DNA of 64,000 nt, from positions 735,234 through 799,233 of the forward strand of contig ML992503.1 of NCBI GenBank assembly GCA_010093995.1. The letters are read 5' to 3'. How positions within the stretch are numbered: the first letter of the stretch is position 1; each line of letters opens with the position of its first letter. The stretch comes from Elsinoe ampelina (lineage: Eukaryota). Under the pieces are notes generated by a model that saw only the letters and a list, made by a program, of their open reading frames with translations, did no database searches and was not told the DNA's origin. A program made the position numbers and the translations under genes. Below are positions 17,513 to 44,544 of the stretch, piece by piece.

Positions 17513-18099
17513 TTACTCTTCTCCTTTAATCGAGTTGTCCTAATAAGTAAGTATCCTTCCTTGTCCTTACGCGCTATGTACTAAATATGCCTTCTAGTCG
17601 TTAAAGGCATAGCAAATCTAGTATATCCGTACGAAAGAATCTCTTAGAGTTTATTAAACTATTCGGAACTAACATGCTATAGGCTTATTCTCGTTATAAA
17701 TCGAAGGGGCTAGACTACAAGGTCTATATTTAGTCGGGTATCTATAGCTAGTATATCGTAAGTAACTACTTAGGTTATAATATTTAGATAACAAAATTAG
17801 AATAGTAGCGTCTTTAGTCTAAGTGTATTTATTTACGAAAGGAATTAGTTATAGCTAAGGCTACTAGAAGAGAAGCTAAAGAAGCTTATAAAAAGGCAAA
17901 AGAGACTTATTAAAGAGCTATAGGTAATAAGCTTTACCTACGCGAAGAGATACAAAAGTTAGAGAATAAGGCGGAGAAAGTAATCTCTCTAGAAAAGACT
18001 CGTATTTAAGTCTTAGAGTAGGAGGAAATACTATTGTCGGTGAATCTCGTCCTACTATAGAACTAGTAGTTATTTATGCCTAACTCCGATTAGAGTTCC

Positions 18100-21000
18100 T
18101 TACTTAGTAATAATTAAGGTACTTCTATTAGTTAAGTAATCTTCCTTAGACATTCTCGTTTTTGTTTAGTGTTTAGAGTACTAGGTCCGTCTAGTCGATT
18201 TACTTAGGATAGGTTCTCGATCTAGTAATCTAGAATTACTTACGAGGTAAAGTACTCCTCTAGTTCCTATGTTACTTTACTATACTAATGTTCCTTCTAG
18301 TAAATAAGATAGTAATGTTTTTCTTTTATAAGTTTATAACGTAAAACTCTTTCTATCTTATACTATAGCTCCTATGTTTCTTCCTCTAGTTCGATAGGTC
18401 TAGGTATAGTATTCTATAGTGCTTTCTCTAGTAGTAATATATAAAAGACTAGATAAATCCTTATATGTCTTAGTAGTTCTAGTTTATATACGTTCTTGTT
18501 TTTCTTTTCTAGGATCTTAAAGAGTCCTAGTTTAGTATAGTTAAGTTTCTTACTCAGTTGTTTCGTTTTAATGTTTTTACTAAGGAGGTAAACTTTCTCT
18601 CTCTCCTATAGAATTAGTTCTATAATTCTCTTTTAGTTAGCAAACTCTACTATTCTTTATAATATAAATGCTATATTATAGTATAGCTAGTCGTGTAGTT
18701 TCTTAATGTTAGCTACTAGTGTATTAGTATCCTTAGATACTAGCTTAATTCTAAGTGTGTCGTAGTATAGATCTAGGTATATCCTATAGTTTACGTAGAA
18801 TAGTAAAATTCTATTTACTAACTTTCTATTATTAACGGCGAGCTCTATAAGTAGTAATAGCGTCGCCTATAAGTCTTGCTTATAGTTTAGGTAGTATTAT
18901 AGGTACTACTCTAGTACTTAATTTGCCCGTTTAGTTTATCTGTCCGTTTGTAGGTAAAAGAAGATTAATAGCTTATATTTGACTTCTAGTAGGTCTATAA
19001 ATAATTACTAGAATTATAACGTAAATAGCTTATCCCTATTGGTTATTAAGTCTCGTAGTACTCTATGTTATAAAACAATTATTCGAAGGAAGGTAAAGGC
19101 TATATCCTCGGTAGTTACTATTGTCTTATATAGGACAAAGTAGTAATACTTCGTAAATCTATCTACTAGGACTAGAATGCTATTATACTTTATACTTGTA
19201 AGAGGTTCTTCTAATAGCGGTAGAGGTCCTATAAAGTCTATCGTAACTAATTACTATAGTTTGTCTAGTAGTAGTAAGAGTTATAGTAGGCTATATAGTC
19301 TATGTTAAGAGTACTTAGACTTATAGTATGTATCGTAGGCGGCGATATACGTCTTAATATTGTTTCGGAGTTCTTTCTAGAGGTAGTTTTATATAATAAG
19401 TTTAATAGTCTTATTAATTCTGCTATATTCCGCTATTAGGTTATTATAGTGTATTTAAATAACTTCTTTCTTCCGTTCTTACGTAAGCTCCTAGGTAAAG
19501 CTATATAACTGCTTTACTTTCGGGTGCTTATAGACTAGAGCGCCGTCCTACTACTTTAGTATAGAGGCCTCTATTATTGTTATGTTTTTTAAGTAATCTA
19601 GCTAGCGGCTAAGAGCGTCTACTTCGCTATTCTCTAATTCCTTAACATAGTAGATCTAGAAGTTGTAGCTTATAAGTGTTTCTAACTATCGAACCTGTTG
19701 TTTATTAAGAACCTTAGTTATTGTCTAATATAGAAGGTTCTTATAGTTAGTATAGACTTATACGAGTAAGGTTGTCCCTTCTAGGTATACTCTCTATTCG
19801 CGGAACGCTTCTATAATCGCGAGTAATTCTTTATCGTGTATGTCGTAGTTAAGTTTAGGTCTAGTCATTTTTCGTAAGTAGTATATAATTGGGCAGCGTT
19901 GTCCTTCTACGCCCTTCTACGCTAGATACGCTTCTATTACAAAGTCCGAGGCATTCGTTTCTAGTAGTGCTTATTAGTCTAGGTCAAAGAGTACTAGGAC
20001 AGGTGCTATTATAAGTCTAAGCTTTAGCTCCTTAAAGGCCTACCTATACCTCTTATTAAAGACAAAGCTAGTTTCCTTTTTCGTAAGGTTAGATATTAGC
20101 GTAGCTACCTTAGAGAATCCTTTAATAAACTTATAGTAGTAGTTAAAGAACTCTAGTAGCACTTAAACCTCCTTAACCGTCGTAGGTTCCGGCTAGTTAT
20201 TTACTAACTTAATCTTCTTTAGATCGGGTCTAATACTATAAGTAGATATAACATAGTCTAGAAATTGTATCTTATGTTTATAGAACTTACACTTAGAGAG
20301 TTTTACTAGTAGGTCTTTTTCTTTTAGTTTCTATAGCACTTTATAAATATGTCCTATGTGTTTATTATACATCTTTAAAAAGATAATAATATTATCTAAA
20401 TATACTAAGATAAAATTGTTAAGGTATTCTTGTAGAGTATTATTAATTAACTCTTAGAAGGTTACAAGAGCGTTAGTTAACCTAAAGAGTATAACGAGGT
20501 ACTTATATAGACTCTATTACGTCCTAAAAGCCGTCTTCTACTCCTTGCCCTCCTTTATTTATACTTAATAATAGGCATCTCTAATGTTAATTATAGTGAA
20601 CTATTTAGCTCTAAGTAGTTAGTCTTAAAGTTCGTCGATCCTTAGTAGAGGATAGCGATTCTTCCTAGTAAGTGCATTAAGTTTCTAGTAATTAATATAT
20701 ATTTGTAACGTTCTATTCTTTTTTAGTACAAAAAGCACTCCGTACGTAATAGGTAATTTTAATAGTTGTATAAATCCTTTAAGTAAGTACTTATCGATGT
20801 AGTCCTTAAGGATATTCTTCTCTTGTTTCAATAGTAGTATAAGACCTTAATAGTGTGTTGGGGATTTACCTTCTTTAAAAGGTATTTTGTAATTCTATAG
20901 TTTATATTAGAGTAAGGCTATAATATCTTTCCTTTCTTTAAATAAGTCCTCGAAGTCTTTATATTCTAGCGGAAGTACTTAATTACTTACGCTAGCGATA

Positions 21001-23490
21001 GCTCTAACTATTAGTTATACCTATACTATCCTTATAGTTAGTATCTACGGAGCTAATTATACTCCCTATATTCTATAATTACACTTAGGGAATTCGAGTG
21101 TTTCTTTAATCTAGTCTACGTCTAGATTGTATTATTAAAGCTAGTCTATGCTAAGTACTATATTGTACTACATGTTAACTATATCGATTAATTATTTTTC
21201 CGTATATGTTTCAATTTAGATTATAACGTTTTATAGTTCCTAAGTAACTTTCCCGTTCTTCCCTATAGAGGTTTTATCCGCTATAGTAAGTAAGTAAGGT
21301 AACTCCTTCTAGTGTTAATAAGGTTTAAGCTAATTAGCAACTGTTATAGAGACGTAGCTATAGTTAGCTCCTAAATCTATTATTGCTTTTACCTTACTCC
21401 CTTATATTTCGACTTCTAGTATAAAGTAGTTTAACGTGTAGATCTTTATTATATTAAGGCTTTAGCTAGTGTTATTGTCTTGCCTTATTAGGCAACAACT
21501 AGCTAGTTTTTTGTCATTGTAGCTCCTTAGATAAGTAGCTAATCTCTTTCTACACGTATCTACTATTAGTACTATATCTATTAGGCAAGTCGTATTTTGT
21601 TGCTATTTAATATAGTAAGGTAAACTTCTAGCGCCTAAGTCCCTTAGTGACTATAAAGTCTAATAATTCTCTACTAGTTACACTAAGTAGTATTATACAC
21701 CCGTATAGGTATAACTATTTCTTCTAGGTATAGCTAGGTATTAGTATTAAAGACAAAAACAAGTTATATAGATTCGTCTTATCGCGTCCTATTCTAGTAG
21801 TAGGTGTATATTATTATATAATTCCTCTATATCTCTATAAGGTATGCTTTAAGTCGTCTACTTAATAGTAGTACGTCGTTGTTATTGTTATTAGATAAGT
21901 TCTTATTTGTGTTATTACATCGTAGTTGTTCGGTGTATTCTTTATTATATTTCTCTTCGTCGCTACTACCCCTAGTATAGTTATAGTTAGTAAGGCTATA
22001 CCGAGTATATTCTTTTACTTAGCTATAGGGAATAGTACTATCTATCTCGATTACTAAGAAGTCCGTAGTGTATTTAAGACTAATAGTATCTTCTCTAAGC
22101 ACATTGTATAAGTAAATAGTATAGTACTATTTATAATTTAGATTTATATATTTCTAGAGCGACATATAATACGCCTTTCCTTATAGTTCGCCGTAAGGGC
22201 TAAAGGTAAGACTACTATATTATCGCGTAGTACTTACGTCCTAATACTTTATCTCGATAATCGTATATTAGTAATTGTTACTAACTACCTTCTAAGGTTA
22301 GTTAATGTTACTACTAATTATAGAGAGCCTTTCTAGGTTAAGCCCCTAGTCTAGCTATTTTATTAGTTACCTACGCTTAGATAGCTTATATAGGAACTAA
22401 CTAGATCCCTACTTGTCTAATAAGTAAATGTAATAAGAGTTATCGTAATATACTATCTATAATAGCGTCGCGTATTAGCTTTATTGTTCGCTATTAGTCG
22501 TAGAGATATTAAGTATAATATCTAGAGAGGATTCTATTGCCTCTCGAGTCGTTATAGACCCCTTCTATGTTTCCTTACCTATACTAAAGGTTATTAGGTC
22601 TTCTATAGTAGTGTCGGCCTTTTTTTCTACTAGCCTAGTAACTATTATATATAATTCATCGGCTAGCGCCCCTTATCGGTAGTCCCTAGCCTAATGCCTA
22701 GGTCTTTTATACTTAAAATATAAGTTATCTTATCTATACTTCTCTCTCTCTTTTCTACTAAGGAACTTTCCTCTATAACTATAGCCTCGTACCTATAAGG
22801 GGCAGCCTTCGTGTATAGTATTAAGTTCTATAGAGTCTCTATAGTTTCGAGAGAAACGCGTATATCTAGTATTTACCTTATATCCCCTATAACGTTCTAT
22901 ACGTCGTTTGTAAAGTCTATTATTAATAGCAATTATAGTGTCTACTAGTTCCTAAAGGCTATTAGGCGGCTTAAGTATTATTTAGTCTTTGACCGAGTCG
23001 CTTAGTCCTTAATAGAATACTAAGTGTTTAGTACTATCGTCCTAGTCTAGGTGTATTACGAGTTGTTAGAACTAGAAATAGTACTAGGCTATAGACCTAT
23101 ATTGTTGTAATTGTTAGATCTTTGTCGTAGCAACGTGTTCCTCGTTAGATACGTTAAAGACTTACTTAATCTTTGCCTAGAAGATACTAAAGCTCTTAAA
23201 GATAGCCTTTATATCTAGGCCTAGTTATCTATCTAGGTAGCCACTTATATAAGGCTCGAACTACCCGAAGGCGGCGCCCTTAAGGTATATCTTAGTATAG
23301 AGGACCTTTGCCGCGTCGTTACTATACTTATCTCTCTCTAGAGCAAAGAAGGCTTTAAGTTAAACAAGGAAGCGCCTTAAGTAGGCGCGGTCCCTATAGA
23401 AGAGTTCTACCTCTAACTTAGGCCTACTCTATCCTTCTATACTAAAAGACCTTCTATATTCGCCCGAGGTTAAACTAGTAGTAGATATGT
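18100..23490 (-). pseudogene. gag-pol relic
   Basis: Motifs after RIP reversal: gag FHGDRAHLRRFLVQ (~23400), CCHC knuckle (~22680-22725), protease AMIDSGA (~21370), RT EWKTAFRT / YEYLVMPFGLTNAP / VYLDD (~20390-20545), RNase H ETDASDF and NYDIHDKELL (~19820-19965), integrase TMDFIGPLP and HPQTDGQT (~18930-19245), chromodomain YEIERVL...YLIHWK...TWEPEE (~18250-18365). Confidence 0.93.
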
Positions 23491-23604
23491 CGTTAATAGT
23501 AAGCTTTTCTAGCTTACTAGCGATTAAAGATACTAATAGTAACTTAGAGTAAGAGTTACTTATTAACCTCGTAGCGTGCTATACTATAGTAAGGGTAGTT
23601 AAAA

Positions 23605-24067
23605 TGTTATAAACTGTCTAAACATAGCCTACGCTAGTAGTCTAAGCTAAGCCGGGAATAAGGTAGTTCTACTTCTATAGTAGTATAGTACTAAGGTAAG
23701 AGTCGGAGAAGATATATCTTATAGATAATAAAGTACAATTAGATAGTATTATAAAGGCTAGCCTTAGCAATACTAGTGTTCGCTATCTAGACGAGGTTAA
23801 CTATAGTACTTATATAAGGTAAGAACCATTCCTATATATATATATTCTCTATTATGTTCTCTATGTGCTCTATATACTCCGTAGCGAGAGTCGGGGGCAA
23901 TATAGAGTACACGTCCGCTAGTAACCTATATACTCTATAGTTTTAGAGGTAGAGCTACTAGAGAAGATAGAGAACCGAGTAAATGTCGAGCTAGGTCACG
24001 TAATAATCTCGGCAGCTTAATTAGTCCTAACGTCTCTACATTCTAGCTGTCCTACTAGTTCGTAACA
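23605..24067 (-). repeat. 5' LTR
   Basis: TGTTATAAAC...GTTCGTAACA; same length as, and collinear with, 17050-17512. Confidence 0.95.
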
Positions 24068-24100
24068 TTCTTATACTTATTAAATACATATAATAGTACT

Positions 24101-27100
24101 ATACTACCGAAGATAAAGAAGCTAAAGGTCGCTACTAAACCTATAGAAAAGATTCTACTTAATAACCTTATACTAGCTCTTATTAAGAATACGCTTTATA
24201 ATAACAATATTAGTAAGAAATCTATCTAATTCTTCTTTAATTAGGACGACTAGTAATACTCTACTACATTTGTAAGAATAAAGGAAACAATCTTAAAAGT
24301 CTTTACGGAATTTAATATTAAAATTAAGAAATAAGATAGAAGTAAGTTATGCAATTCTAAAGTGCTTAAAGCACGCCTTAAAATTAAAACTAGGCTACTA
24401 AATAGCACGCCTAACAATTTCTAGCTCTTTGTTAACCGACTAGATTAGAAAGATCTAGACTAGTTTAAGGAGAACTTACGAACTATAGTTAATATCGATA
24501 AGATAAAAGCTATATAGCGATTATTCCGAAATACTATACAATTAATAAGGGCAAATCTCCTGTTAGTTAAAAGGGAAAGAATAACGTTACTAGGTAAAGA
24601 AGGCACCTAGAGTCTATATCCTTTAGCTACCTCGTCTATATAGATACTAATACTCTTCTAAGTAAGAACACTATCCTTAGAGAGACATATAACTTATATA
24701 AAGACAGGCGATAAGAGATTAGATTTATATATATAGCCTTATTATAGAATATTCGGCTTTAACTAGGGGCTAGTGTCTAATCGTGTCTAGATTAATATCG
24801 AATTTGCTACGATTTAGATTATAGAGGTTATCGAAGTAGATACTATTCCGTATCTAACATTAAGAAAGAACATCTACGTCTACGACTTAAGAAAGCCTAG
24901 TGCCGGTAAGGACAAGAATTATTACGTTAATTACTATATTAGTAAGCTTAGGCAGATCCTTAACATTAGAGGTAATTACCTCTAACTTTACTAGCTTAAT
25001 ATATATAACTCCGTATAAGTCTTCGCTATTAAAGACTCTTTCGATCTAGACGCTACTATTACTAAGTATATTACGACTCTTATCCCCGGTGCCTATAAGA
25101 TCTTTCTCTATCTTACTTCTTCTATAGTATTTATTAAAGATCTTCTCGACTTTATACGAAGTAAGTTTATCTCTTTCCTATTTATCTATATATACTAACA
25201 CTTATAGATAACTCTTATTAATATTGTAGTAGCTAGCGACTACTTCCTATAGCCGAGGCCACTATAGAAGAGAACTTAGAAGTGTTTCTTACTCCTAAGA
25301 AGCTTCGCTTTATAGATATTAACACTAATAAGAAGCGTAAAGGAGATTAGTAGAAAGAGAATATTATAATATAGAACGTTTAATACCCGTAATAGCGACT
25401 AAACCGCTAAAGGCAAGAGTAGTAATACTACTATATTTTATTTGCTATTACGTTATTTATAAAACTGTTTAGTTCTTAACTAATAAAGTTTTATTTAGCT
25501 TGTTCTACCCCTAAGAGGCTATAGCCTCTATAAATTCTATAATTTCTATTATTATTATTAGAAGCAAACTTGCTCGATAGTCCTATAACTATAGCTAGAC
25601 GGATTTTAACTAACCTAGCGACTTAGTTTAGAGTATAGTCTTACTTTACATAGTTTTAGAAGAATATAGCTCCTTCTCCCCTACTAGAAGAACATAGCCT
25701 ATTTAGACTATAGCATATGCCGCTAAGGCGCTATCTATATTCCTACTACTTTAATAGCTTAAAGAATATTATATAAGCTACTATACACCTAAGGCCGGCT
25801 ATCTATCTAGATAAATGTAATCTCTCGAAGCTCTCTAATACCTCTCCTAAGTTCTACTTTGTTACTAGTAACTTCCTATAGCTCGCCTAGCACGCTATAA
25901 CGTATTAGAGTAAAGAGAGTAAGTCCGAGAAGATAATAACTTACTTCTACTAATACGAGATTAATATCAGTATTAAAAAAGTAATATGTTTTTAATATTA
26001 TCGACAATAGAAACGAAGTAATACCACTATAGATATAATAGACTAGGGCGTTTAATAATAAGTAAAACAAGTTAGCGGAATAGAATCTTATTCCCTATTA
26101 TAGTAGAAGCAATAGTACAAGTTTTAGTTCTATACCGAACTTAGAGTTAACTAAATTAAATAAGAATAGTATAGTGCTATAAAGAAGCGCGTAGGTATTA
26201 CTACTAACACAGTTATTAGGCTTTACCCTCGTATACTAGCGAGGTTTACACGTAGTATACTTAGAAGTTAATAAAGAATTCTCGCTAACTATTATTAGTT
26301 CTAGCTACTACCTCCCGACAAATAGTAGAGACGCTTTAAGTTAGGTTACGCCTCCTAACTAAGTATAAACTTAAGTTAGTTTAGTTAGCCTAAAACTAGA
26401 GACAAACTTATTTTATATTAGGGCGGATAAGTCCTTTAAGGGAACGCTATAACGCCTAGCTATCTTATACCTCTCCTTATTAGGTAATTACTACTCGGCA
26501 TTAGCACGGCTCTACTAACTACATACGTAGGTTTAGTATTAAGCTTAACATTTGATATAAGATCGATTATACCGAGAGAAAGAGATTAGATGTCTACTAC
26601 TTAATAAAGGCAGCTTCGACATAGTAGAGCTAGTCTCTATCTATAGGCGGCAAAGACGTACCTATTACAAAGAATAAGAGAGGATAAACTAGACACGATT
26701 TAACTTAATATTACTATATAATATAATAAGAGGCAGCTCTCTACCTATGTAAAGGTAACGTAAGAATAGTTAAAGCCTATTATAGCTTCCTTTTTGTAAA
26801 TATAATAGTCACTTCTCGTTTCTAGTTTAAAATCTTTATATTAGTCCCTATATAGATAGCTAGACTTCTATTTATTCCTCTCGATATGTATCTTAACCTA
26901 ATTATAAAACATCTAGTAGCTACGCCTACTTTTATGTCTTATTAGGTTTGAGATATTTCTAACTAGAACTCTAAAGTTTTAATCGAGAATAGATATCTTA
27001 TTTCTTTAGTAGCACTATATACATAAATTGCTTCGCGTATAGGGGAGTATACCTTAACTACGATTATAGAGACGCTATATAGGAGAGAGTAGCACGGGAT

Positions 27101-28001
27101 AATATCTATATTTAACAAGTAAAAGGAACCTAGAGATAATTATACTAGATATTGTTGCGAGCTTACTTTATTCGCTCCGCTACCTCGCTAGTATAGGAAG
27201 AGTAATAACATCGACCGACATTATAGTAGAGGCTATAGACACTTCTTAAACTTTATACCCCGAGCCGAAGCAGTAGACAAGTATATAGCTAGCGCTACGC
27301 TAGATTAGAAATATAAGGCCTTTATATTATTATTCCCGAGATTATAGAACAGAAAGTCTATAGTTAGAAGACTAAGAGGCAGTAAGGAATTATTCGTATA
27401 TATAACTCTATAGCGCTAGTAGTAGCTATAGTAGTTAGTTTAACTTAGTTAGTCTAGTTTAGTTGTTACTAATAAGAGAGCTATATCTACGATAACTTAA
27501 GAGAATCCTAAATAGCTAAGCTATTAGGATCGGTAAGGGCACTAAAGTCGTTATTGTCGATTATAGAGAGAAGTCTATAGTAAGCTACGTAGGTATTATC
27601 GAGGTAGCTATATTAAAGTAAACTTACTTCGAGAAGGCTACGCTAGTTAGTTTATAACTAGAAATAGTATATAGTTCTATAACGAGTAGAGTACTAGTGC
27701 TTCTACCTTAATAGTATAACTTTGCTTAATACAAAGTTAGTATATAGATCTAATTATTATAGTAGGCTTCCGATAGTGCCTTAAAGAATATAATATTTAC
27801 TAGCGTAGATATAATAATAGCGTTTATGCTTAAGCTAACTATACTATTCTATCGGCCGAAGAAGTAGGTTAACTATAGCTACGATACACCGACGATAATA
27901 TAGAAGGTTATATAAGACAATATAGCGAAGCGAACGAACTAAAAGTATAGTTGTTTAAACTAATAGAGGAGTAACGGCAAATTATTAGTTTATCCTTATT
28001 A
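24101..28001 (+). pseudogene. RIP-degraded SNF2-like helicase paralog A with degenerate ATPase motifs
   Basis: Collinear protein similarity to 31362-35343 at the N-terminus (FFNQDDxQY; DxDWFKxN) and C-terminus (RIxKxTxxVIV; AFMxKLxxLFYRP...MMWKVI), but canonical helicase motifs are not recoverable. Confidence 0.7.
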
Positions 28002-28488
28002 AGATTAGTTAAGGGAACGCCTACAATTTTCACCTAAAAAGCACTAGTTTTAGTTTAGCGAACTAATTAACTACCCCTAATAGATTAACTATAGGTATAA
28101 ACGACCTAACGTTATATAGCCGAGGCATCTTTGTATACTACTATTACTATTTTTTCGTAGAGGCTATTTATAACTAACTTATTATAATACTAGCGACAAG
28201 TCGAGACATAAGATAGTAAGAGCTATAAATCGTTTACTAGCTAAAATTATTATACCTACGTAGCACCTCCTATTTTATAATTGCTATAAAAGCCTCTACT
28301 AAAGACAATAGCGCGACAATAGCTAATTAAGTATAGCATTTAATATTATCCTTAAGCGAGAGACAGCTAATAAACTCTATTACCTAGATATATTAGAGTA
28401 AACTCTGTCTCGACATGTCTAGTACTATAGCGTAGATACAATTTTAGCTTTAGTTCGCCGATACTATATAATAGCTTAGTCCTATTAG

Positions 28489-28962
28489 CTCTACTACGAA
28501 TTACAGTAAATAAGAACTAAACTAAGTAACGAGGTAGAAACGATAGTCTATAGCTAGTGTTAGGTGTCCTTTCTCCTTCGCCTACTATATAGTATAGTAT
28601 AGTAGATAATCCTCTTAGTCTCTTTACTAACCTTAACCCTCGACCTCTAGCACGTAGAATAGACAGTAATAGTAATAGTAGGCTCGATAGCGACATATAC
28701 AAGAAAGAGAAGAGTATAGACGAGGTTATAATAGAAAGCACACACGAGAAAGAGTAAGTAATTATAGTAAGTATAACTAGTAGCACGTCTATAGAGTAGA
28801 GTACTAGGAGGTTGTCCTTATCTAGTAGAGCTATATCCGATTGTACTACGTTCGAGATAGTAACTAGTATACTAGCTAGTAGCGAGGAGTTAGTAATAGA
28901 TATAGTTTATCCTTAGTTTATATTAACTAATCTTGTCTAGATCTTCCTAAGTCTATAATATA
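28489..28962 (+). repeat. Direct repeat Y, copy 1: truncated duplicate of the 5' part of the Plavaka transposase gene (copy 2 at ~35841-36314)
   Basis: Near-identical to 35917-36314 from 28565 (offset 7352), including the same small intron; diverges after TAAGTCTATAATATAT. Confidence 0.9.
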
Positions 28963-29336
28963 TCCTTTGCCTCGAGCGATTAACAAGATATAGCTTAGCT
29001 AGAGACTCTCGGCTCGGCACTCTAACGTTTAATAAAAGGTAAGCTACTAACTTAGATAGATAATTTTAATTCGAGTTAGGTCGTCGTAGTAGAAGTACCT
29101 TCTAGTAGAATACACTCGCCGCGGACTACTAGCCTCTATATAATGTTCTAACAAATCTACTTCTACCTACGTAAAGGTACTAAAGATATATCTAAGTTAC
29201 ATATATAAAGGCTATAGTAGTCTAACTAATAGTAAAACAGTATTTACTAGTAGGAAGCTTACTCGGCTTAAATTTAGTAGTGCGAATCGTCGCTTTACTC
29301 TATCTCTAGCATATTATATATAGCAGTAGTAGAGGG

Positions 29337-29536
29337 TAGCTAGCAGGGGACAGCTAGTAGTTTATTATGTCGAACTAACAATTTCTTAGTTCTCTCTCTC
29401 GAAGTTTAAAGATAACTTAAAATTTCGACCTAACTATAGCTAGTAGGGGACAGCTAGTAGTTTATTGCGTCGAACTAACAATTTCTTAGTCCTCTCTCTC
29501 GAAGTTTAAGAATAATCTAAAATTTTAACCTAACTA
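29337..29536. repeat. Tandem duplication, 2 x 100 bp
   Basis: TAGYAGGGGACAGCTAGTAGTTTATT...CTCTCTCGAAGTTTAA...CCTAACTA at 29341 and 29441. Confidence 0.93.
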
Positions 29537-29663
29537 GATTAAGCACTCCTCGGAACTTAATTACGTAATGCTATCTAATTATATTCTTCTCTAAAGTTAA
29601 GTATCGTATATTTAGAGACTTATAATCTTTATAGCATTATAAATGCGTTGCAAACTCTGTTTA

Positions 29664-30465
29664 TAGTAACACAACTATATCGTAGATACGATTTACTATA
29701 ACGCTTTAGTTTGCGCCCTCTACTTACACTAATCTAAATATAGGTATTAGCGTCCCTAGTATAACCTTTTCTCTTCTCTCTATCTAACCTCGATAATAGC
29801 TAGCTATCTATTATAGTAGATTCCCCGCTTAGTATACTATAATTATCTATTGCTATATATACGATAGCAACTCTAATATTTACTTCTATATTACTGTCGC
29901 TACTACTTCTAATAGTATCCTCTATACCGGCTATATCGTGTTTATAGAATTAACTACTGCTAGTACCTAGTAGTTACGCCGGAGTAAATCTATTATAGTA
30001 TATCTCTCTATCTTGCCTACTACGCCGCTATAGGCTTAAGGGTGTATAAGGAGACTCTAATATCTCTTTCTCTCTCCCCGCTACTACTACTCTTTATAGC
30101 TTCCTTTACACTAGCTATGTATTATTAGTAGGACTAGCTACTATCTCTACCTAGTAGCTACGACTAAGCGAATCTATCGCGGAGCATCTCCTAATCTTAT
30201 AGATAGCGCTACTAGAGGTTCTAGCGTACGTAAAGAGAGTAGAGAAGCTAGCGTTTACCGGGGATTACCTACCTTATAGTATAAGAATGTCGAGGGGAGA
30301 ATTATAGAGGAACAACTAGTATAACAAAGAGGAAGAGATAGAGGAATATTACGGGTAAAGATACGTCTACTACCTCCTACTAGATAGTAGCTTACTATAG
30401 AGAGCGTTATAGGCGGAGCTATACTAGTAGTGTCCTCTCTTGCTATTGCCTTTCTAGTAGAGCTA
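29664..30465. repeat. Direct repeat X, copy 2
   Basis: Collinear with 15468-16270. Confidence 0.92.
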
Positions 30466-31361
30466 GGCGAGGAATAAAGCGTATTTGTAATTATATAGAA
30501 TATACTATTAACTGCCTATTCCGCGGAATGTATAGCCTTTACTCTACTCTACTACTTAATTCTATATATAGCAATTATAAAGTCTAGATAATTAGATAGT
30601 AGTATATTACTTTCTTTATTCCTTTACTAGCATCTATAAGCTATACTATACGCTATACATACTATGCCCTTTATTCCGCTATAGGCTACTAACCACCTTC
30701 TATTTATATTCTATTACTATTGTCCTTTATATACGAATACTAGTTTTGCTATTAAAATATTGTTTCATTATTTCACGTTAACTACTACTATATTTCCTCT
30801 ATTTATTAGACTATTATTCCTTAAGATCTACCCTAAACACGACAATAGTATCCTTAGTGTATATAGTATATAAAATAAAAGGTAACTAAGTACACGAACT
30901 ATAGTTACTCTTAGTTTAGTGTCTAAACTAAGTAATTTACTATTATATATATGCTATATCTAGTATACTACTACGTGCTTAGTTCGGGGCCTAACCTAAG
31001 TCGACTAAATTTAGGTTACTTCTCTCCTTAATTGCTTTAGTTTACCTTTGTTTATACTCTCTTATATATAAATAAATAACTTATATAGCTCTCTAGTATT
31101 TCTTTAACCTCTTTAATCTCTCTTTTAAGCGCTCTTTACTTAAATATCTCCTCTTTAGTTAAGTCTTAGTTAGGTATATATCACGAAGTGTATAGACCTA
31201 CTATGTTAATAAATTCTCTTCTTAATTCTTCTAAACTTATAAATACGTAACACCTTTATAGAATCTCTTCTTTAACATCTACTACACCTACTTAACCTAT
31301 TTACTAGATATTATTCTAAGCTTTATTTGTAGTATATACTAAGCTTATAGATGTATATAAT

Positions 31362-34300
31362 ATGTCTAAGAATTAGCCTAACGGCGCTAGTATAGCTACT
31401 AATAACATTCCGCTCTACGAAAGACCTCCTATAGAAATTTAAGCATAGCTTAATAAAAACCTTAAGATTAAGAGATTCTTCCTTGAATTCTTTAACTAGG
31501 ATAACAACTAGTACGCCGCCGCACGCGTAAGAGCGTAGGAAGAATATAAGAATGCCTATATAGTTCTAGAACTCGAATATAAGGAACCTTAGAATAGTAA
31601 TGTTAATATAACTATAATTATAAATAACATTAAAACTTCCCTATAATACTCTTAGGATAACTATACGAAGATCTTCTTTTAAAGACTATACTATTAAGAC
31701 TAAGACTAGTTTAAGAGGAACGTTAGAAACTATAATAATATATCTAGTTATAATGTCATTAAAGATTTTATCCTTACTATTAAGGCGTAAGAGCTTAGGA
31801 ATAAGAAGAATTAGACTAAAGTAGATAAGAAGGCTTATTCTAAGAAGCACATTAGAAAGCGCCTCTCTACTATCTAGTCTAATAGTAGACTCTTCGAAAG
31901 ATTAGAGACTTCTATACTTAGTAGCGGACTTATAGGTATAGATATTAATTACTATACTAGTTAGCCTATATGTTAGTAGTAAATACTAGAGGACATGTCT
32001 TGTCTAGTCTAGAGTATTATCGATAAAACTATTATCGACTTTATAATTGTTAAGTAATTAGATATTAGCCCGGGCGTAATTATAAAGAGAGGATATTTAC
32101 ATTATCTATAGGTGTTTAGTCTAAGAATTTTAAGGTCACATCCGGGGGATTATAATCTAAACGTATATAGCCTTAATAATATTAGGCTATTCCTAAAGGA
32201 GAAGAAGTTAGTTAGCAATAATATTATTCTTATATAGATAGATTATATAGAGCTATATAACATCCTACCTATCTTAGACAACTATAACCTACGTGCTACT
32301 ATAATTAACTATGTTAACTCCCTAGTTAAAGGTAGTAATATAATCTTTATCTATCTTACGCCTAGTATAGATCTAGTTAAGAAGCTCCCTAAAGAAGTAC
32401 TTTATAAGTTTAACACTTAGTTCGACTTAGGTATATACTAATATACTTAGTTAACTCTCTTTAGTATTGTAATAGTTAGAAGCTATTAACTCTAGTCTAG
32501 GAGGAAGAGAAAGAGAAACCTCTAGCCCCTCTATCTCTAGCTAAGTGCCTACTACTACATAAACCTACCCCTAAGAAGTAACCTAGCTCTCTACTACCTA
32601 ACGAGGATAATACTACTATTAACTATCGTCCTACTCGGGTGATAGAAGACAAATACTATAAGCAATACCGAGACAGCAATTAGTATCCCTTTATAATTAT
32701 GCCTAGCGAGGAGCAAGTAAGGTACTATATTCCGTTAGTCTCTAAGACGCTATCTATACCTATCCTAGCGCTTATAACTTGCATATTTAATAAGACTCTT
32801 AGCAGCTCGAACTTTATTAAACTTTATACTATAAACAATAACAACGACGAGTAAACTAGTAATAATCTAGCTAACTAAAGCTTTATCTCTATAGGTACTA
32901 GAATTAATTACTAGTCTAAAGAGTTCTAGGAGAGAGTCTATAACTTTATAGGCTTTAAGAAAGACATCTACTTACTAAACGCTAGTATATAGTGTTTTAG
33001 TTAGAATAAGAAGTATCTAGTCGAGGCAGTATAGATATACTTAGCGCTTATTATACTTAAGAAATACCTCGAAGGCTATCTAGTATTTATATTTATATAT
33101 AAGATAGAATTTAGAAAGACTCCGATAGGACTCTTCTTTCTCTTACTAATTCGGAACTTAAATAAAAAGGTTATCTAGAATACTAACTATACTACTATAC
33201 CTAAGGATAAGTAGAGTAAGTACTAGAAGGTAAAGATACTAGTTAACGAGCTATAGCTAGATATTACTTCTACGGATACTATTAGCTATAATCTAATTAT
33301 TGGCGGATTAAATGTAATAAAATAGTAGGCGCGAGAGATACGAAAGTTTATACCTAATATAAAGGTCGTCCTATACTAGGGAAGAATATTCTAAGCTATG
33401 TAAGAACATAAGTACGGCGACGTATATAATATAGACACTTTAATTTGTAAAGAGGATCTACCTATAGGCTGCCGCTAATAGGAGTCTTAGCTAATAGATA
33501 AGTCTAGTAAGTCTATCGACACTATTATAGTCTTATAACTAGTCGATATACGTAAGTGACACCCCTAGACCTTATAGATAAATAATTAGTTCTTCTTTAC
33601 TACTTGCGATACTATAATCTACTACTTCCTTAGTAAGAACAATATAAATACTAAGGATTAGGACTTTATTCCTAAGGGACAAGAGAGAAAGCCGGGGTCT
33701 ACGCCTATAAACTAAGCTACTATTATCTTTAATAAGTTCTATTAGGTTACTAGCTAGAAGACGTAGACCTAGTATTATCTAGGAATACTACTAGAGAGGC
33801 CTTTTATACTAGATATAAGCGAGATACTATTTATTAAGTGCTTAAATGTAGTAGCGTTCTTAATAGCGGCTATATATAAGGACTTTAGATTAGAAAAGCT
33901 TAATATAAATAGAAGTAGAATAGGAGAATTTAACGAGAACTATATCTATAAATCTAAGTAGAAGCTAACTAAGGCTAAGAATAATAAACATTAAGTAACA
34001 CTAAAGACAACACTAGACAAGACTTAATAAGCTATCGCTAATAAGCTTAACTTCTAAATAGTATTAGACTATGCCTTTGTAATTAATAAATAGTATAAGG
34101 CAAATAACAACTCTAGTAAGTTTAACAAAAAGAGAGGTATATAGTTTATAAAAGAAATTATAGTAATAGTTAGTAAATAGAGTACTATCCTTACGAATAT
34201 TCTTATTAAGATAAACGTAAACTATATCTAGAAACCTTTTAATACTACTCCTAGTCTACTAGCTATTAGAGTTCTACTATATTCTACCTTCGACCTAGAG

Positions 34301-35343
34301 ATCGCTATCGAGGATAAGTATCTTTATAGTCTTATAAATATATAGAAGAAGATTAAACGAGATATAGATAAGAGTATATAAGAGGTAATCGATAGGTAAA
34401 AGGACAAATCCGATAAGCCCGAAGTAACATTAGAGATAATCCTTAATAAGAAGACTAAGGAGTAAATACTAAGCCTAGTTATGCTACTACTACTTTTCTC
34501 TATGTTTCTTGCTCTTATAGATATATTCTAGAACAATCCCGCGGTTATAGAAGAGTTTAGTAACTTTACTATTAAGTTTACCTACGAAATTATATATAAC
34601 TCCTCGGAGATAGCGCTATAGTAGCATATAGATAAGATCTACGCTAGTTCTTAGATAAAGGTCCTTTATAGTGTTATTTCCGAGATTATTAAGTAGAACA
34701 TCTCCTATTCGAAGGAGCTAAAGAGGTAAGTAATTGTCTATACATTTACACTGTTAGTGCTAGTAGTTGCTACAATAGTTAGTTCGGTCTATTTAGTCTA
34801 TTTAGGTTATTACTAATAAGGGTATAGTATCTAAAATAGCTCGAGAAGCACCTAGACGGCAAAGCAATTAGAATTGATAAGGATACTAATATAGTTATTG
34901 TCTACTATAGAATAATATCTATACCTGCCTATATAGATATCGTCGACATAGCTATATCTAATAATACATTTATCGAACCTAATAGGCCGGAAGGCTTAAG
35001 GATCTTAATTGCCTAGGGTAGAGCTATTAAGACTAGTCTTAATCTAAACTGCTTTAACACTATAATCTCGCTTAATATAGCGTTAGTGTTATAATCTATT
35101 CTTTAGTGTCTAGCTTAGGTCCGTAGGAACATTAAGTCTTAGAAAGCTAACTATATAGAGGCATTTATAATAAAGCTAATAGCTCTGTTCTATAGGCCTC
35201 TAGAATAGCTTAATAGTAGACAGGGTAGGCCGTTAATAATATAGAAGGTCATCTACGAGGAAATAGAGAAGTAGAAGGCAAAGATCTAGAAACTTTAATA
35301 AGCTATAGCGAAGAAGAACACAATTATTATAGATAATAATTAA
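31362..35343 (+). pseudogene. RIP-degraded SWI2/SNF2-like SF2 helicase/ATPase gene B with a long N-terminal extension
   Basis: ATG 31362. After RIP reversal: Walker A HEMGFGKT (TAT AAG ATA GAA TTT AGA AAG ACT, 33098-33121), Walker B IIFDEFH (AAT AAG TTC TAT, 33731-33742), motifs V-VI TGLNLNCFNTIISLD...SILQCLAxVRR (35032-35127). Confidence 0.82.
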
Positions 35344-35840
35344 GATTGCTAGATAATAGTCTAACTATATCACCTAAAAATATAATTCTTTAGTTTAGCG
35401 AACTAATTTAGTTCCCTGTGTATATTAAACTATCTTTTAGGTTACCTAATATAATATAGTATCTAAATGTTTTCTACTTTCTACTATCGCTAAAATTTAG
35501 CTAGCTAACTCTAACTACGAATTTAGATCTTAAGCGACAAACATAGATATACTAAGGCAAATTAGTAAATACTCGGCCTATAGGAAGATTATATAATCTA
35601 GTAGAGGCCTTGTCTAACATCTACTGTATTACTAGAGAAGAGAGCTACTAATAAGTAATATAGCGTAAGTCTTACTAGAGTAACGTAGCGATAGACATCT
35701 ACGTAGAGATAACGCTAGTAATAATCCTTGCTTATTTAATAAGGGAGAGCGCTTACTATCTAATAAAGGCCGACGAGGTAGTATTACTAGTAATGTATAA
35801 TATAGTCCGCTAACGCCGAATAACCTACTAGTCTACTTTA

Positions 35841-38800
35841 CTCTGCTACGAATAATAGTAACTAAGAATCGAACTAAACACTAGAGTAGAAACGAAAGTC
35901 TATAGCCGGTAGAGAGTGTCCTTTCCCCTTCGCCTACTATATAGTATAGTATAGCGGATAATCCTCTTAGTCTCTTTACCGACCTTAACTCTTAACCTCT
36001 AGTATATAGAACGGATAGTAATAGTGATAGTAGGCTCGATAGCGACGTACACGAGAAAGAAGAGAGCATAGACAAGGTTATAATAGAAGGCACGCACGAG
36101 GAAGAGTAAGTAATTATAGTAAGCATAACTAGTAGCACGTCTATAGAGCGAAGTACTAGGAGGTTGTCCTTATCTAGTAGAGCTATATCCGATTATACTA
36201 TGTTTAAGATAGCTACTAGTATACTAGCTAGTAGCGAAGAGTTAGTTATAGACATAGTTTATCCTTAGTTTACGTTAACTAATCTTGTCTAGATCTCCCT
36301 AAGTCTATAATATATATACTAACACTGACGATAAACTAAATTACAATTAGTTAGGCGAGACTTAACTAAAGAAAGCCTTTATTAGTAGTATAGACGTAGG
36401 TCTTACCTAGTAGCTTATAAAAGAGAAACTTAGTAGAGCTATAATTACGTAATTACTTAAAGACCTACATATATAACCTCTAGTAGAGAGCCTTAGTTAG
36501 CGAACTACGAATGAACTAATAGAGAAGATAGAGAATTTAGATACGGGTAGGGGCATTAACGGCTAGTAGACCTTAAGCTTTATACTAAACACTAATCGTG
36601 GGCCTAAAAGACACACGTTCTAGCATCTAGATATTCTTATAGCGATACGCTTCTTGCTTAGCTATCGCAGTTTCGTAGTAGATATAGACTATAGCCTATA
36701 TAGAGTCTTTATAGAAGCTATCGAGAGTAAGCCGCTATAACAAGTGTATACCGAAATAGTAAGCGGCGACTAGTAGTAGAATATATAAAAGCGACTTAGA
36801 ATACTAGGGGCTACTATTATTCTATTAATTGTCGCGAGTAATTAGACCTAGGTAATAAACTATTAAGGAGATCTTATAGCACACGCTATCTATCTATTAT
36901 TAGGCAACCTAAAGGTAGAAGCACGTAATAGTAACTACCGGCCGAGGTAGTTACTAATTAGCTTACTTTCTATTATTAAAGATAGTAGCAATGTTGTTAA
37001 GGAGAAGACCTACTACGCTTGTATAAAGAAAATCTTTAATGCTGTTATTAATTACTACTCGAGAGAGAGCGAAATAATCTCCTATATAAATAGAAAGAGG
37101 TAGAGGTACTTCCCTATACTTACTACTATACCTACGAATTACGCCGAATAGGTTACTATAACCGGTGTAAAGTTACTATATCATTGTATAAGTTGCCTAA
37201 TTAGTAAGAACGAAAGGGAGGACCTAGTAGTTACTATGCTATTCTAAACTTACTACTCTACGTAGCGATAATAGCGCTTATAAAGAGAAGTACGCGAGAG
37301 TTAGTAGCGGAGTAAGAAGATAGATATAAGCTCTTAGGTTTATATAGTTAGTTACTTTACGTAGGATCTTCCGTATACTAATATTTACTACGCGATAGTA
37401 CTAGATATTCTACACTAACTTCTTAAAGGCGTTTTAATACACGTCTTACACTAGACTTAAAAATTGCTCTAGGATTTAATGCCTATATAGAGATTACTAC
37501 GGTATATAAAGGCTAGAGAGACTATATAGTAAATAGGCTACTAGCGCTTAGTAAAGGAGATTATACTTAATATTATTGACAAGCGTTTTAATAGTATACT
37601 AGTGTTTCCTAGCATCTAACACTTCTTATACTACTTAGCTATTAAGTAATAGATAGGTTAAGAGTAGAAGAGTATCGTACGCTAGATGCTTCTAGTATTT
37701 ATGCCGCTACTTAAGGAGGTTAAGGCGCCTTAAGCTATTAAGTTTATACGTATACTAGTCGACTTTATATTACTAGTAAACTATAAGACCTATAATAACG
37801 ACATACTCTAGTATATTAACCTTATGCTCTTTAGGATAAACAAGTATAAAGAAACCTTCCGGGCCTATTATAGCAATAGGAAAGAAGAGAGCAACTTTAA
37901 CTTTCTAAAATAGCACTTAATAATATATTTTTTAAAGGCTATCTATAATTTCGAAGTAGTTACTAGCCTCGATTCTAATTATTTAAAGTACAATTATATA
38001 TGCTTTATTAAGGACGCCTTTAAACTTATAAACAAGAAGGCTAGATAGAAAGACTAGGTTACTACTTATAATACTAAACTAGTAAACATGTTAGTAATAT
38101 TCGACAACCCCTCGAAGTTAGTTAGGCTATTAGCTACTAAACTAATTAAGATCTAGAGTACGCTAGTTAGCGTAAGCGATATAGTAAACGTCACTTCTTA
38201 GTTTAGCTAGCCTAGCGCTAAGGAGAGAGCTATATAGCGTATAGTAAGAGAACTAGAGGCGCTTATTAACATACTACCTAGGCTATTACTATAGCAAGTA
38301 ATAGCGGTGTTTGTCCGCGAGGCTCGTTAAGGTATAGCTAATATAGGCTCTAACTCGAGAACTAAACACTCTAATTAGTTTAACGCTAAACTAGATCCCG
38401 ATAGACTCGAACTAGATTCTTCCTAGGTAAGTGACCTCTATATTAAGTTCTACTATTCTTTAAAGTGTAGGAAACTATCCGACTATAATTCTAATAATCC
38501 TAATATAGACGAATAAGACTTTATCTAGTGTATAACTAAATAGCAGAGAATACGTAGCAATAAGAGGCAAGACTAGCTCTAGGTATAAGAATAGATAACG
38601 AACAACGAAGGCACTAACGGAGTATTACCTAATAGCCTACAAGGTAAGTTACTAGCTTATATTATATTTATAATAACTATAGAGGATAGCTTCTAGTCTA
38701 GTAGATTAGGCCGGCGTTAACGCCTATACTACACGGGAGCGCTAGTAGATCTATATTAGCCTACTTAGCCGGATAGAGTAGCTAATTAAGAGCATAGCAT

Positions 38801-39086
38801 GACACTAATTAAGCCTTAGACAAATCGACGCGTACGAGCTAGATAGAACGCTCTTACTAGTAGGCGTGTCTACTCTACCTCGTAAATCTACTATAGTATC
38901 TACGTTGTACTAGTAGATAAAACAAGACTATATAGCTAGATATACATTAATAACATAGCTAACTTCGATATATATAACATGCTATAGAATAAGTTATAGA
39001 AGTCTAAATAGCTCTACCTAGCTAAGGCTTTAAAACGAGAAAGGTTAAGATCCCTAGGCATAGTTAGTAAGTGTAGTAGGTATTAA
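35841..39086 (+). pseudogene. Plavaka-family transposase relic (true start probably somewhat further upstream)
   Basis: After RIP reversal: VYTEMxSGDWWW..Q...PGATIIPLIVASDQT...AIYLSLGNL (36744-36911), DYAEQV..TGVK...HCxSC (~37137-37197), PDILHQLLKG (37401-37430), DKRF..IPVFPGIRHF, QWTG, FNFPKWH (37896-37916), C-terminal YINNxADFD. An intron at ~36241-36293 joins repeat Y in frame. Confidence 0.88.
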
Positions 39087-39399
39087 CGAAGCTAGAGTAC
39101 TTCTTTCGTAGCTAGAATAATTGTCTCTTACGTTAACGGCCTAACGCTTAGGTATACTTAGGTTAACTACTAGACTATGTTAGGTAGGCGAGTTATAATA
39201 ACTTCCGTAGGTATTACTCTAACTAGTTAGTTTATACCTATATGTTATTAGGTTAGTCCCTAAACTATATAGGGTTCGTAGCCTAAGGTACCTTATGTAG
39301 TTTTTACGCTAAAGAGTTAGTCTATTCCTTTACTAATTATAATAGCTTAGAAAATTATAGTAAGGCGTTATAGAAGTTAGTCTTTAAGATGCTTAAGAC

Positions 39400-41300
39400 A
39401 TACCTTAAGTATTTAGTAACAGCGGTAAAAGGCTTAGGTTAGTAAGTTATCTTTAGGTTAGTTTTACTAATAGAGTTAGCGGTCTAAGAGGAAAGTTTAT
39501 TCTCTATAATAAGTTTACTAATAAGACTCCGATGTAGACGATAGTACTTTACTCTATTCGCTATTATATCGCAGAGATCTACTTAATACTACTAGAGTAG
39601 TTACTAAGGACTTATTCCTTTCTATCTAACGGATAAGATCTATAATAACACTAGCTTAGAAGACTCGCTAGAGAACATTCTTATTAATCTCTATATATAT
39701 ACTATACGTAGGAAACGAGTTAAGGAAGAAGCTACCCTTTAGTACAGCAAGTAGCCTCTTCCTTGTCCTTTAAAGTCTCCTTTATATCTATGTAGGTCGT
39801 AAGTATTTTCTTATAAGATTATTAGTATATAATATATATATAATAAATCCTGTCTATAAAATTATATACTAGATTATCCTACACGCGCTATTACTGTAAC
39901 TACTACTTAGTAGTAGTAATAGTAGAGTAGCGGGATATAGTAGGAAAAAGTATTATTATACCTACCTCTAAGAGGGGGATACTCTCTTTCTCCCCTATAC
40001 CTTCCTCCTTGCTCTCTACTATAGTAAGGTATACTATAACTAAAGCTACTACTACTACTCTCTCTATAACTACTATTACTCGTATATAGCTATAACTATA
40101 GGTTATTACTAGAAGCTTAGTACGCGTCGGAGTAACCTTATCTTTAATATATAGCAATAAAGTGCTATAATCTCAACCTAGACACTGCCTTTATTACCTC
40201 TCTAACAACTGTTATAACTAGCGCCGAGAGCTAGTAAGGTAAGAAGCGTACTACCTCTACCTTCGCTAGTGTCTATAGCTATACTAGTATTAAGCTCGGC
40301 AAGGTAGAGAAGAAGAGTAAGAAGCGGAAGGAGCCTCTTATTATTACTAATTACCTCCTTACTAATAACCTTATAGATAGACAGTTAGGGTAGATCTTAA
40401 ACTTCCTAGAAAGAGTATTTACTTCTCTACTATAACTGCCTTCGAGCTGTCGTTTAGACTACTATATCCTTAGTACTATCTCTAGAGCTACTTAGACACT
40501 ATACTAATGTCTATTAGACCTTACTTTTCTAAGTAGTCTTTCGTAGCTCTAGAATTATCCTTCTAGTAGGTATACTATTCTATGTTAGTAGACAAGGAAT
40601 TAGCTTAGCCTAAACTAAATATCTATTATATTTCTCGCACCTGTCTATGTTAGTATTAATCTTCTTAGAATAGGCTATAGCCTCGCTACTATAGCCACTA
40701 TTAATGTAGTATATCTAGCTTCTATTATTATTCTCTTCCTACGTTACTAACGACTTCTAAGTACTAGAATAGGTCTATAGGTATTTATACTCGATGTTGT
40801 AACTATACTTAGCTATAATAATTAAGTCCTTCTCGGGAAAAGCTTTCTTACATCTACAAGCCTAAGTTATAAATGCCCCTCTATAAGCTTATTTTACATT
40901 GTCGACGATATAGGCTACTAGATAGTAGAACTCGTAGGCTATAGAGTAATAGAGGCGCTTTTCGTTAGTGTTAACCTTTGTTACTAGCTATATAGTCGCG
41001 CGAAAGTGCTTATCTTTAGAGACATCTAACACCTTAATAGATAACTAAGTAGAGACGATAAAATAGAGTTAGAATAAGTATATATTAGTTTAGGGTTTTA
41101 TATTATAAGCTAGAGAATAAGGCGTATAATGTCTACTTTCCTATTATAGCGAAAGTGCTTCTATACTAAGCTTCGATAATATAGAGCATATACTTCCCCT
41201 CTATCTAGCGGACAAGATCTATAATAACACTAGCTTAGAGAGCTCTCTCCGGAAGATGCTCGTTAATTTCTATATCTATTCTAGTCGCGGCAAGTAGAGC
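39400..41300 (+). pseudogene. RIP-degraded cargo gene(s) resembling fungal BTB/POZ-domain proteins (two related C-terminal segments)
   Basis: ~100-bp repeat at ~39617-39720 and ~41198-41300 translating YLxDKIYNNTSLExSLxxxLxNxYIY; upstream IILLVG (~40553) and YIVARKCLSLETSNTLID (~40990-41043). Confidence 0.4.
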
Positions 41301-41320
41301 GTTTATCTAATCTAAGGCAC

Positions 41321-41392
41321 GTATAGTGCGTTTAACTAAAATTAGATAGGTATAGTGCATTTAACTAAATTTAGGTAGGTGTAGTACGTTTA
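41321..41392. repeat. Subterminal 29-bp tandem repeats (2.5 copies) near the right TIR of the Plavaka element
   Basis: GTATAGTGCGTTTAACTAAAATTAGATAG / GTATAGTGCATTTAACTAAATTTAGGTAG / GTGTAGTACGTTTA. Confidence 0.8.
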
Positions 41393-41475
41393 TAGCGACC
41401 TAACGTAGTTAAACTTAGTTTAATATAGAGAAACTTAATATTCTAACTCTCTACACTTAGGACTTTCGTAACGAA

Positions 41476-44485: not shown

Positions 44486-44544
44486 TGTGCGCTTACGTAA
44501 AGGTATACTACCTTTATTATACCTTTTTTTAGCTTTACTTTTAA

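Follow-up and report, generated by a model that had tools for sequence, protein, structure and literature searches.

Two kinds of described systems come close to the locus reported here. The first is X3X3R8, a 26-kb family of Stagonospora (Parastagonospora) nodorum SN15 that repeat-induced point mutation (RIP) has degraded and that contains tandem Rad5/SNF2-like helicases, a Rad6-like gene and uncharacterised open reading frames (ORFs) (Hane & Oliver 2010, PMC3017866). Its second helicase unit matches the first in parts only, those parts being 10-20% divergent, and the family was taken to be an endogenous gene cluster that had been amplified, some copies being intact and no transposase reported (PMC3017866). 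The second are transposons of the Plavaka group, which in fungi carry a TET/JBP dioxygenase as an accessory gene (Kojima 2025, PMC12730594) and in red algae the accessory genes PAG1-3 (methylase+SET, ParB+2OG oxygenase; Bostrychia preprint, bioRxiv 10.1101/2025.02.11.637652). These accessory genes have been proposed to counter silencing, and the fungal families described are mostly from Agaricomycotina (PMC12730594; 10.1101/2025.02.11.637652). We analysed a window of 64,000 nucleotides (nt) of Elsinoe ampelina (GenBank assembly GCA_010093995.1, contig ML992503.1, positions 735,234 to 799,233 of the forward strand; all coordinates below are those of the window), in which two helicase-like genes on the plus strand, gene A (24101..28001) and gene B (31362..35343), are followed by a degraded Plavaka transposase gene.

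Both genes lie in an AT-rich block of ~34 kb (10450..44600, delimited by its GC profile and RIP indices) with a GC content of 0.30-0.36, compared with 0.48-0.58 in the flanks, which hold ordinary fungal genes. The TpA/ApT ratio is 1.75-2.34 inside the block and 0.57-0.64 in the flanks, and the (CpA+TpG)/(ApC+GpT) ratio 0.21-0.32 and 1.13-1.28, respectively, values that we take to be a RIP signature by the usual thresholds. The block is a RIP-degraded mosaic of several dead mobile elements, and all genes of the A/B locus have been destroyed by RIP, leaving nothing functional. As a whole, we read the locus as what would be the remains, RIPped beyond function, of a repeat present in many copies and centred on a Plavaka (CACTA/EnSpm-like) DNA transposon with two tandem SNF2-like modules, an explanation to which we give about an even chance.

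Gene B is probably the remnant of a gene for an SNF2-like ATPase of the SNF2 family, a call that we base on its motifs, on a RIP-aware profile test and on a weak hhalign match. Motif I (33098-33121) now reads YKIEFRKT (codons TAT AAG ATA GAA TTT AGA AAG ACT) and is recoverable as HEMGFGKT; motif II (33731-33742), preceded by the hydrophobic residues TIIF, reads NKFY (AAT AAG TTC TAT) and is recoverable as DEFH; motif V (35029-35046) reads KTSLNL (AAG ACT AGT CTT AAT CTA) and is recoverable as ETGLNL; and motif VI (35104-35133) reads stop-CLA-stop-VRRNI and is recoverable as Q-C-L-A-(Q/R)-V-R-R-N-I. A preliminary description of this DNA had proposed that these four motifs could be restored in B, and codon by codon each required change proved to be the reversal of a C-to-T or G-to-A mutation. 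Motifs I, Ia (33293-33385, located by its profile block score) and II share one low-stop frame in the expected order, and motifs V and VI stand at the canonical spacing G-L-N-L...(V/I)(V/I)..D....P....Q......R. This last pattern, which was picked after B had been seen, matched once in the block and not at all in 20 shuffles. The low-stop frame of B (coordinate modulo 3) is 0 from ~31800 to ~32500, 2 from there to ~34760 and 1 to the end of the gene, and frame 1 has the fewest stops between 31362 and ~31960; TGA-free stretches were rejected as a guide to the coding frame, since RIP removes TGA throughout the block. B is a helicase-like gene of ~1300 codons, with an N-terminal domain of ~400 codons that is common to A and B and belongs to no recognisable family.

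Motifs of this kind are cheap under reversal. Within the block, relaxed reversal yields, per kb, 1.25 sites for GxGK[ST] and 0.55 for DExH, and in shuffled sequence MGxGKT occurs about once per 34 kb and a motif II site of the TIIF-DEFH type 0.3 times per 34 kb. The motifs could thus be chance products of T-to-C and A-to-G reversals in AT-rich DNA, A and B being repeat-borne genes of some other kind, and a motif I block score higher than that of B does sit within a gypsy element of the same block. We therefore built a test of B at the level of the profile, in which the SNF2 core derived from 26 bacterial SNF2 genes (PF00176) is compared with the possible pre-RIP codons, allowing for frameshifts and jumps. 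Gene B scored 39.3 bits, compared with 21.4±3.5 in 60 shuffles (maximum 29.3), 16.8 bits for its own reverse strand and a maximum of 29.1 among 22 other windows of the block. The result held when the profile was rebuilt in this form from an earlier one of 31 sequences, which included five wrong-strand ORFs and gave B 32.4 bits vs 18.4±2.5 in 60 shuffles. With the 31-sequence profile, a lower chaining penalty did no more than increase the noise (B, 86.4 vs 69.7±4.6; A, 70.7 vs 66.6±3.5). In a profile block scan that covered 4 of the 8 blocks, the motif Ia block of B reached 30.3 bits, the runner-up among 68,122 positions being at 9.1 bits, and hhalign, used without any RIP reversal, picked out this same block as its single match, although weakly (P 0.037, probability 1.4%). 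The outlying Ia block, its recovery by hhalign unaided, the common frame and order of motifs I, Ia and II, and the V-VI spacing (with the reservation already made about how that pattern was chosen) argue against chance, and we regard an origin of A and B outside the SNF2 family as very unlikely.

Several observations weigh against assigning B to this family all the same. Pfam scans of the block, made on six-frame translations with the stops read through, gave no family for B at E<=0.1 in any of its three read-through frames, either SNF2-rel_dom PF00176 or Helicase_C PF00271. A phmmer search with the 763-residue N-lobe of B matched none of 1,835,955,588 proteins, a search of PDB with gene B had no match at E<=10, and a word-indexed search with the N-lobe yielded 8,000 candidates, none of them at E<=10. 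The same kind of search with the N-terminus of B gave 5,903 candidates, none at E<=0.01, so that every standard search came back empty. The equally RIPped transposase next to B still scores 129 bits in Pfam, and B would therefore be a divergent SNF2 member at best. The C-lobe of B taken alone is not significant with the 31-sequence profile (15.5 bits vs 11.4±1.8 in 40 codon shuffles, maximum 18.4), and B has neither the W-N of 'WNP' nor the G-Q of 'RxGQ'. Compared with known SNF2-family ATPases, B thus resembles them, once transitions are reversed, in the order in which motifs I, Ia, II, V and VI occur and in their frame and spacing, and differs from them in having no Pfam match, in a motif VI without G-Q and in being ~200 codons longer than the bacterial profile from motif I to the C-lobe. 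The SNF2 ATPase of the preliminary description is retained as a probable one on its motifs, the RIP-aware profile and the hhalign match; the SNF2-rel_dom and Helicase_C models match neither B nor A.

Directly after B, 0.8-1.1 kb downstream and on the same strand, we found the RIP-degraded gene of a Plavaka transposase (36150..38798, plus strand). The domain PF18759 is recognised at 36504-37448 with an E value of 2.6e-37 and 129 bits, covering profile positions 3-322 of 325. One relative was found in the database, P0001 (607 aa, also with PF18759; E 5.5e-15, 24% identity), a protein in which I, N, F and K are very frequent and that resembles a gene call on RIP-like or AT-rich DNA. The claim that the two genes are a transposon-borne pair is therefore borne out as far as this transposase next to B goes, and is left in doubt by the possibility, discussed below, that two one-gene variants have been juxtaposed.

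The ends of the element are less clear, and this counts against placing A and B within it. The published ends of Plavaka elements read 5'-TGT..ACA-3' or 5'-CATCA..TGATG-3' with target duplications of 2-3 bp, as given in the parts of the fungal survey used here (PMC12730594), and neither these termini nor such duplications could be identified at this locus. No convincing terminal inverted repeats were found, the best candidate being 41 nt at 71%, and no inverted copy of the left edge of the A/B upstream flank (R1, below) was found downstream. Terminal sequences may have been erased by RIP. Given the lack of terminal repeats and target duplications, A and B can be placed inside the transposon only tentatively.

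Gene A is a paralogue of B and, like it, is degraded by RIP. In read-through frames, the N-termini of the two align by blastp with an E value of 5e-18 and the C-termini with 2e-28, in agreement with the preliminary description, which had noted similarity at both ends. The middle proved homologous too, with 81.5 bits in a RIP-aware aligner compared with 44.4±3.3 in 25 shuffles and 50.6 and 51.6 for the reverse strands, or 51.2 bits vs 30.8±3.4 with B held in its coding frame. Over their whole length, a lattice alignment of A and B scored 342.7 bits, compared with 79.8-102.2 in 36 control comparisons (nine segments, both strands, vs A and B). The anchors are collinear, at offsets of 7243-7344 nt, and the lengths are about equal. 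Considering the collinear anchors and the whole-length score, A and B are full-length paralogues, and they diverged anciently: transversions amount to 19.5% in the C-lobe, 28% in the N-terminus and 31% in the middle, where an unrelated control has 29.8%. A third helicase-like gene was sought in nine other segments of the block on both strands and none was found, the scores against A or B (79.8-102.2) being those of shuffles (87.4±5.5). The stretch 10450-15467 was rejected as a helicase-like candidate, its chain of 25.9 bits with the 31-sequence profile being scattered over frames and 4 kb.

The clearest difference between the paralogues is in the C-lobe of A (27295-27933, plus strand, codon alignment to B), which aligns with that of B over 136 ungapped codons at 111 bits and then over 50 codons at 43 bits. 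Where B has K-T-S-L-N-L-N-C, A reads SRVLVLLP (27685-27708), and opposite the Q-C-L-A-stop-V-R-R of B it has Q-A-S-D-S-A-L-K, the letters now being stop-stop-ASDSALKNI (27760-27792). Both readings had been given in the preliminary description, together with the proposal that the differences lie beyond the reach of RIP. This holds for VLVL, from which transitions cannot give GLNL, and for the Ser at the first arginine slot, from which they cannot give Arg. It does not hold from the window alone for the Lys codon AAG of ALKNI, which can be reached by a transition from AGG (Arg); however, position 27784 is G in 11 of 11 and 8 of 8 other-copy contigs of two runs, so that the codon there is GAG (Glu), which supports the loss of the second motif VI arginine as well. 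In the C-lobe of A, GLNL, the conserved Asp and the two arginines of motif VI are thus missing through changes other than transitions, and the motif V GLNL and these arginines appear to have been lost before RIP acted.

The N-lobe of A is a different matter. With regard to its motifs, the preliminary description had tentatively placed a Walker B at LDM(Y/H)L (26880-26894) and held that no GxGKT could be recovered. The former aligns with B 34205-34219, between motifs III and IV and away from DEFH, and the latter is contradicted by 10 GxGK[ST]-compatible sites in A (chance, ~1.25 per kb). One of these, IRADKS at 26417-26434, is in the low-stop frame, is compatible with GAGKS or alternatively with D-E, and lies within ~3 codons of the slot collinear with the DEFH of B. 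The slot opposite motif II of B reads LILY-stop-GG in frame 1 or IRADKSF in frame 2, the low-stop one, and that collinear with motif I is ambiguous. Pfam gave no family for A at E<=0.1 in any of three read-through frames. Against the 26-sequence SNF2 profile, A scored 22.4 vs 20.7±3.1, which is not significant and speaks against an SNF2 assignment of the paralogue. Its low-stop frame signal is absent over 25300-26050 and shifts often, which could reflect introns or decay before RIP. The description of A as a dead paralogue thus holds for its C-lobe only, where motifs V and VI were lost through changes not attributable to RIP, the motifs of the N-lobe not being reliably readable.

These observations bear on whether a single element encoded an active SNF2 remodeller, B, together with a catalytically dead paralogue, A, that served as regulator, decoy or structural partner. 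The missing GLNL, Asp and motif VI arginines, with Glu at the second arginine slot in other copies, would suit such a pair, as would the fact that A is about as long as B, has blocks collinear with those of B and is present at a similar depth. However, there is no evidence of selection on A, its low-stop frame is lost over 25300-26050 and changes often, the GxGKS- or D-E-compatible site at 26417-26434 means that its N-lobe may not be dead, linkage of the two genes in one element is unproven and no intact homologues were found. We therefore consider an active/dead partnership unlikely.

What had looked like a pair of genes is better described, from the arrangement of the flanks, as two tandem modules of ~7.3 kb, each apparently made of an upstream flank R1, a helicase-like gene and a transposase start, with only the second complete. 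R1a (15468..16262, plus strand), upstream of A, is 87.7% identical over 795 nt to R1b (29664..30457, plus strand), upstream of B; the two differ by 90 transitions and 7 transversions in 794 aligned sites (0.9% transversions, 12.2% divergent), and the similarity has a sharp left edge at the same point in both copies, 15468 and 29664. R1 lies 905 nt upstream of B and, if the gypsy insertion is discounted, ~870 nt upstream of A. Downstream of both genes, at a distance of about 450-490 nt, there is a second shared sequence, R3a (28450..29003, plus strand) and R3b (35802..36355, plus strand), 87% identical. Its core (28489-28963 vs 35841-36315) shows 55 transitions and 8 transversions in 475 sites (1.7% transversions, 13.3% divergent). 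Since the differences in R1 and R3 are nearly all transitions, the flanks were ~99% alike before RIP. R3b is in a low-stop frame continuous with the Plavaka domain: in the region 35644-36243, frame 2 has 2-5 stops per 100 codons, the other frames having 10-21. We take R3 as the probable first exon of the transposase; A too would therefore precede a transposase start, which was cut at ~29003. Flanks ~99% identical before RIP beside gene bodies that are saturated with changes are hard to explain by any simple model, ours included.

Between the modules there is a junction of 660 bp (29004..29663) that contains a 100-bp unit in exactly two copies at 29337-29536 (90% matches, Tandem Repeats Finder); this unit might be a subterminal repeat of the transposon. 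No similarity to the junction was found elsewhere in the window. According to our explanation, the repeat would hold the same module twice in tandem, in the order R1, spacer, helicase-like gene, 3' flank and transposase start R3. The first module would end within the transposase start and would later have received the gypsy element just upstream of A, while the second would continue into the full-length Plavaka transposase gene. B would once have been an SNF2-type ATPase whose motifs I, Ia, II and V, along with the greater part of motif VI, were canonical, and A a paralogue whose C-lobe was already without the GLNL of motif V and both arginines of motif VI.

Contig pieces of two runs give an idea of the copies of this repeat, with two reservations that weaken our explanation: the runs come from one sample, which is possibly the window's own source, and contig depth is not equal to copy number. 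At a likeness of at least 80%, 10,372 and 7,447 pieces fell on 23600-36400 (12.8 kb), with all 30 bins covered. Summed depth in run X1 was similar over A, the junction and B (7.2-19.5 thousand), single listed contigs having 120-360. A total of 1,068 between-copy differences were recorded. In X1, they comprised changes of the types A>G (223), T>C (242), C>T (292) and G>A (236), transversions being seen at a total of 18 places. Considering the wide coverage, the depth and differences that are almost only transitions, both modules belong to a many-copy family that RIP has hit copy by copy.

Whether the two modules travel as one composite unit is finely balanced. The depth of the 660-bp junction, 9.3-11.2 thousand in X1 and so equal to that of A and B, fits a unit repeated whole, and for this reason we favour the composite unit slightly, at about equal chances. 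The alternative is that two variant elements are adjacent: mosaic subfamilies with a common upstream region and transposase, of which one would carry A and the other B, a truncated A-type element abutting a B-type one with no partnership between the genes. A separate R1 and R3 for each gene, the copies of which show only 0.9-1.7% transversions, is what such an arrangement would leave, and the sharp start of the homology at 15468 and 29664 is like an element end; nesting is common in the block, as the gypsy element and a Tc1/mariner remnant illustrate. One contig in each run also joins R3a-like sequence to the sequence that follows R3b (28958->36331). However, this joint has sides of 41 nt and could be explained by cross-alignment of R3, nothing downstream of the transposase corresponds to where the putative A-type element ends, and no inverted terminal copy was found. 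Together with the junction depth, this makes two adjacent elements a possible but less probable account than a composite unit. Two other joints (24048->34673 and 24067->30967) were rejected as evidence of structure, being ends of the gypsy long terminal repeats (LTRs) that abut other copies of B or of the upstream region.

Few transposons bring along chromatin-modifying enzymes of their own, and those that do reveal how mobile DNA resists host silencing; known cases are VANC, TET/JBP and the red-algal PAG genes. If our explanation of the locus is true, these cases would be joined by an ATP-driven remodeller, in the form of an SNF2-type ATPase on a Plavaka element. The chromatin-modifying accessory genes that Plavaka and KDZ elements carry, TET/JBP among them, suggest by analogy that the living ATPase may have aided the transposon: it may have opened or remodelled the chromatin of the element or of its targets, or counteracted silencing. 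A role of the genes in anti-silencing, or as regulator or decoy, is pure conjecture. Compared with the Plavaka elements known to carry accessory genes, the locus likewise has a DDE transposase next to one or more genes of a chromatin- or DNA-acting type, and differs in that an SNF2-type gene is not among the accessory genes in the available parts of the descriptions (PMC12730594; 10.1101/2025.02.11.637652). The link between Plavaka and an SNF2-like gene seems new; a literature search found no paper tying Plavaka or CACTA elements to an SNF2 gene in fungi.

As far as its published description can be followed, the nearest analogue of the A/B repeat is X3X3R8 (PMC3017866). Both have tandem helicase units, which here are 12.2% divergent in R1 and 13.3% in the R3 core, with gene bodies that cannot be aligned as DNA. 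The helicase genes of S. nodorum bear the identifiers SNOG_09186 and SNOG_01370. A Plavaka transposase is present here, whereas none was reported for X3X3R8; the likeness is one of described organisation. X3X3R8 also has a gene for a ubiquitin-conjugating enzyme, while a six-frame Pfam search of 10300-24150, 27900-31500 and 35400-44700 gave no match to UQ_con (Rad6-like), RIP lowering the sensitivity of this search. If the present locus is what we propose, a transposon origin would be suggested for helicase-bearing RIPped repeats such as X3X3R8. A broader proposal, in which RIP-competent ascomycetes harbour a two-part Plavaka module for anti-silencing or target access (an SNF2 remodeller and a degenerate paralogue) and X3X3R8 is a giant transposon of the same kind, is improbable as things stand. 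The locus is now a wreck, and its worth is as a pointer toward intact relatives rather than as a functional system.

The remaining contents of the block are other mobile elements and unassigned sequence. Just upstream of A is a Ty3/gypsy LTR retrotransposon (17057..24069, minus strand), for which Pfam recognises gag, protease, RVT_1, RNase H, integrase Zn and SH3_Tf2-1, all on the minus strand. The repeats at 17057-17514 and 23612-24069 (458 bp, 91.5% identical) are taken as its LTRs because they differ by 39 transitions and 0 transversions and have the ends TG..CA. No clear target duplication was found for this element. It is Tf2-like and complete-looking though RIPped, and was inserted 30-70 bp upstream of A. 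The contig depth summed over its LTR is ~2×10^5, roughly 20x that of A or B, and it is therefore the dominant repeat of this genome. Toward the other end of the block, the remnant of a Tc1/mariner-type DDE_3 transposase lies at 41942-42343 (plus strand; PF13358, E 3e-9), and near it, at 41295-41392, a 29-bp unit is repeated 3.4 times. No Pfam family was found in any of six frames in 10300-15000 or 27900-31500, nor in genes A and B; the 5 kb of RIPped sequence at 10450-15467 match no Pfam family in any frame and resemble nothing else in the block.

Outside the block, the window is internally repetitive at 1-624 (2-429 vs 182-615, ~67% identity), the repeats lying inside an open frame that has no Pfam match. 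Plant-cell-wall enzyme genes occur on both sides of the AT-rich block: a GH43-like gene below the Pfam cut-off on its left (8941-10071, minus strand) and an alpha-L-arabinofuranosidase gene on its right (45855-47336, minus strand), the latter followed by a gene for an Nramp transporter (48595-50040).

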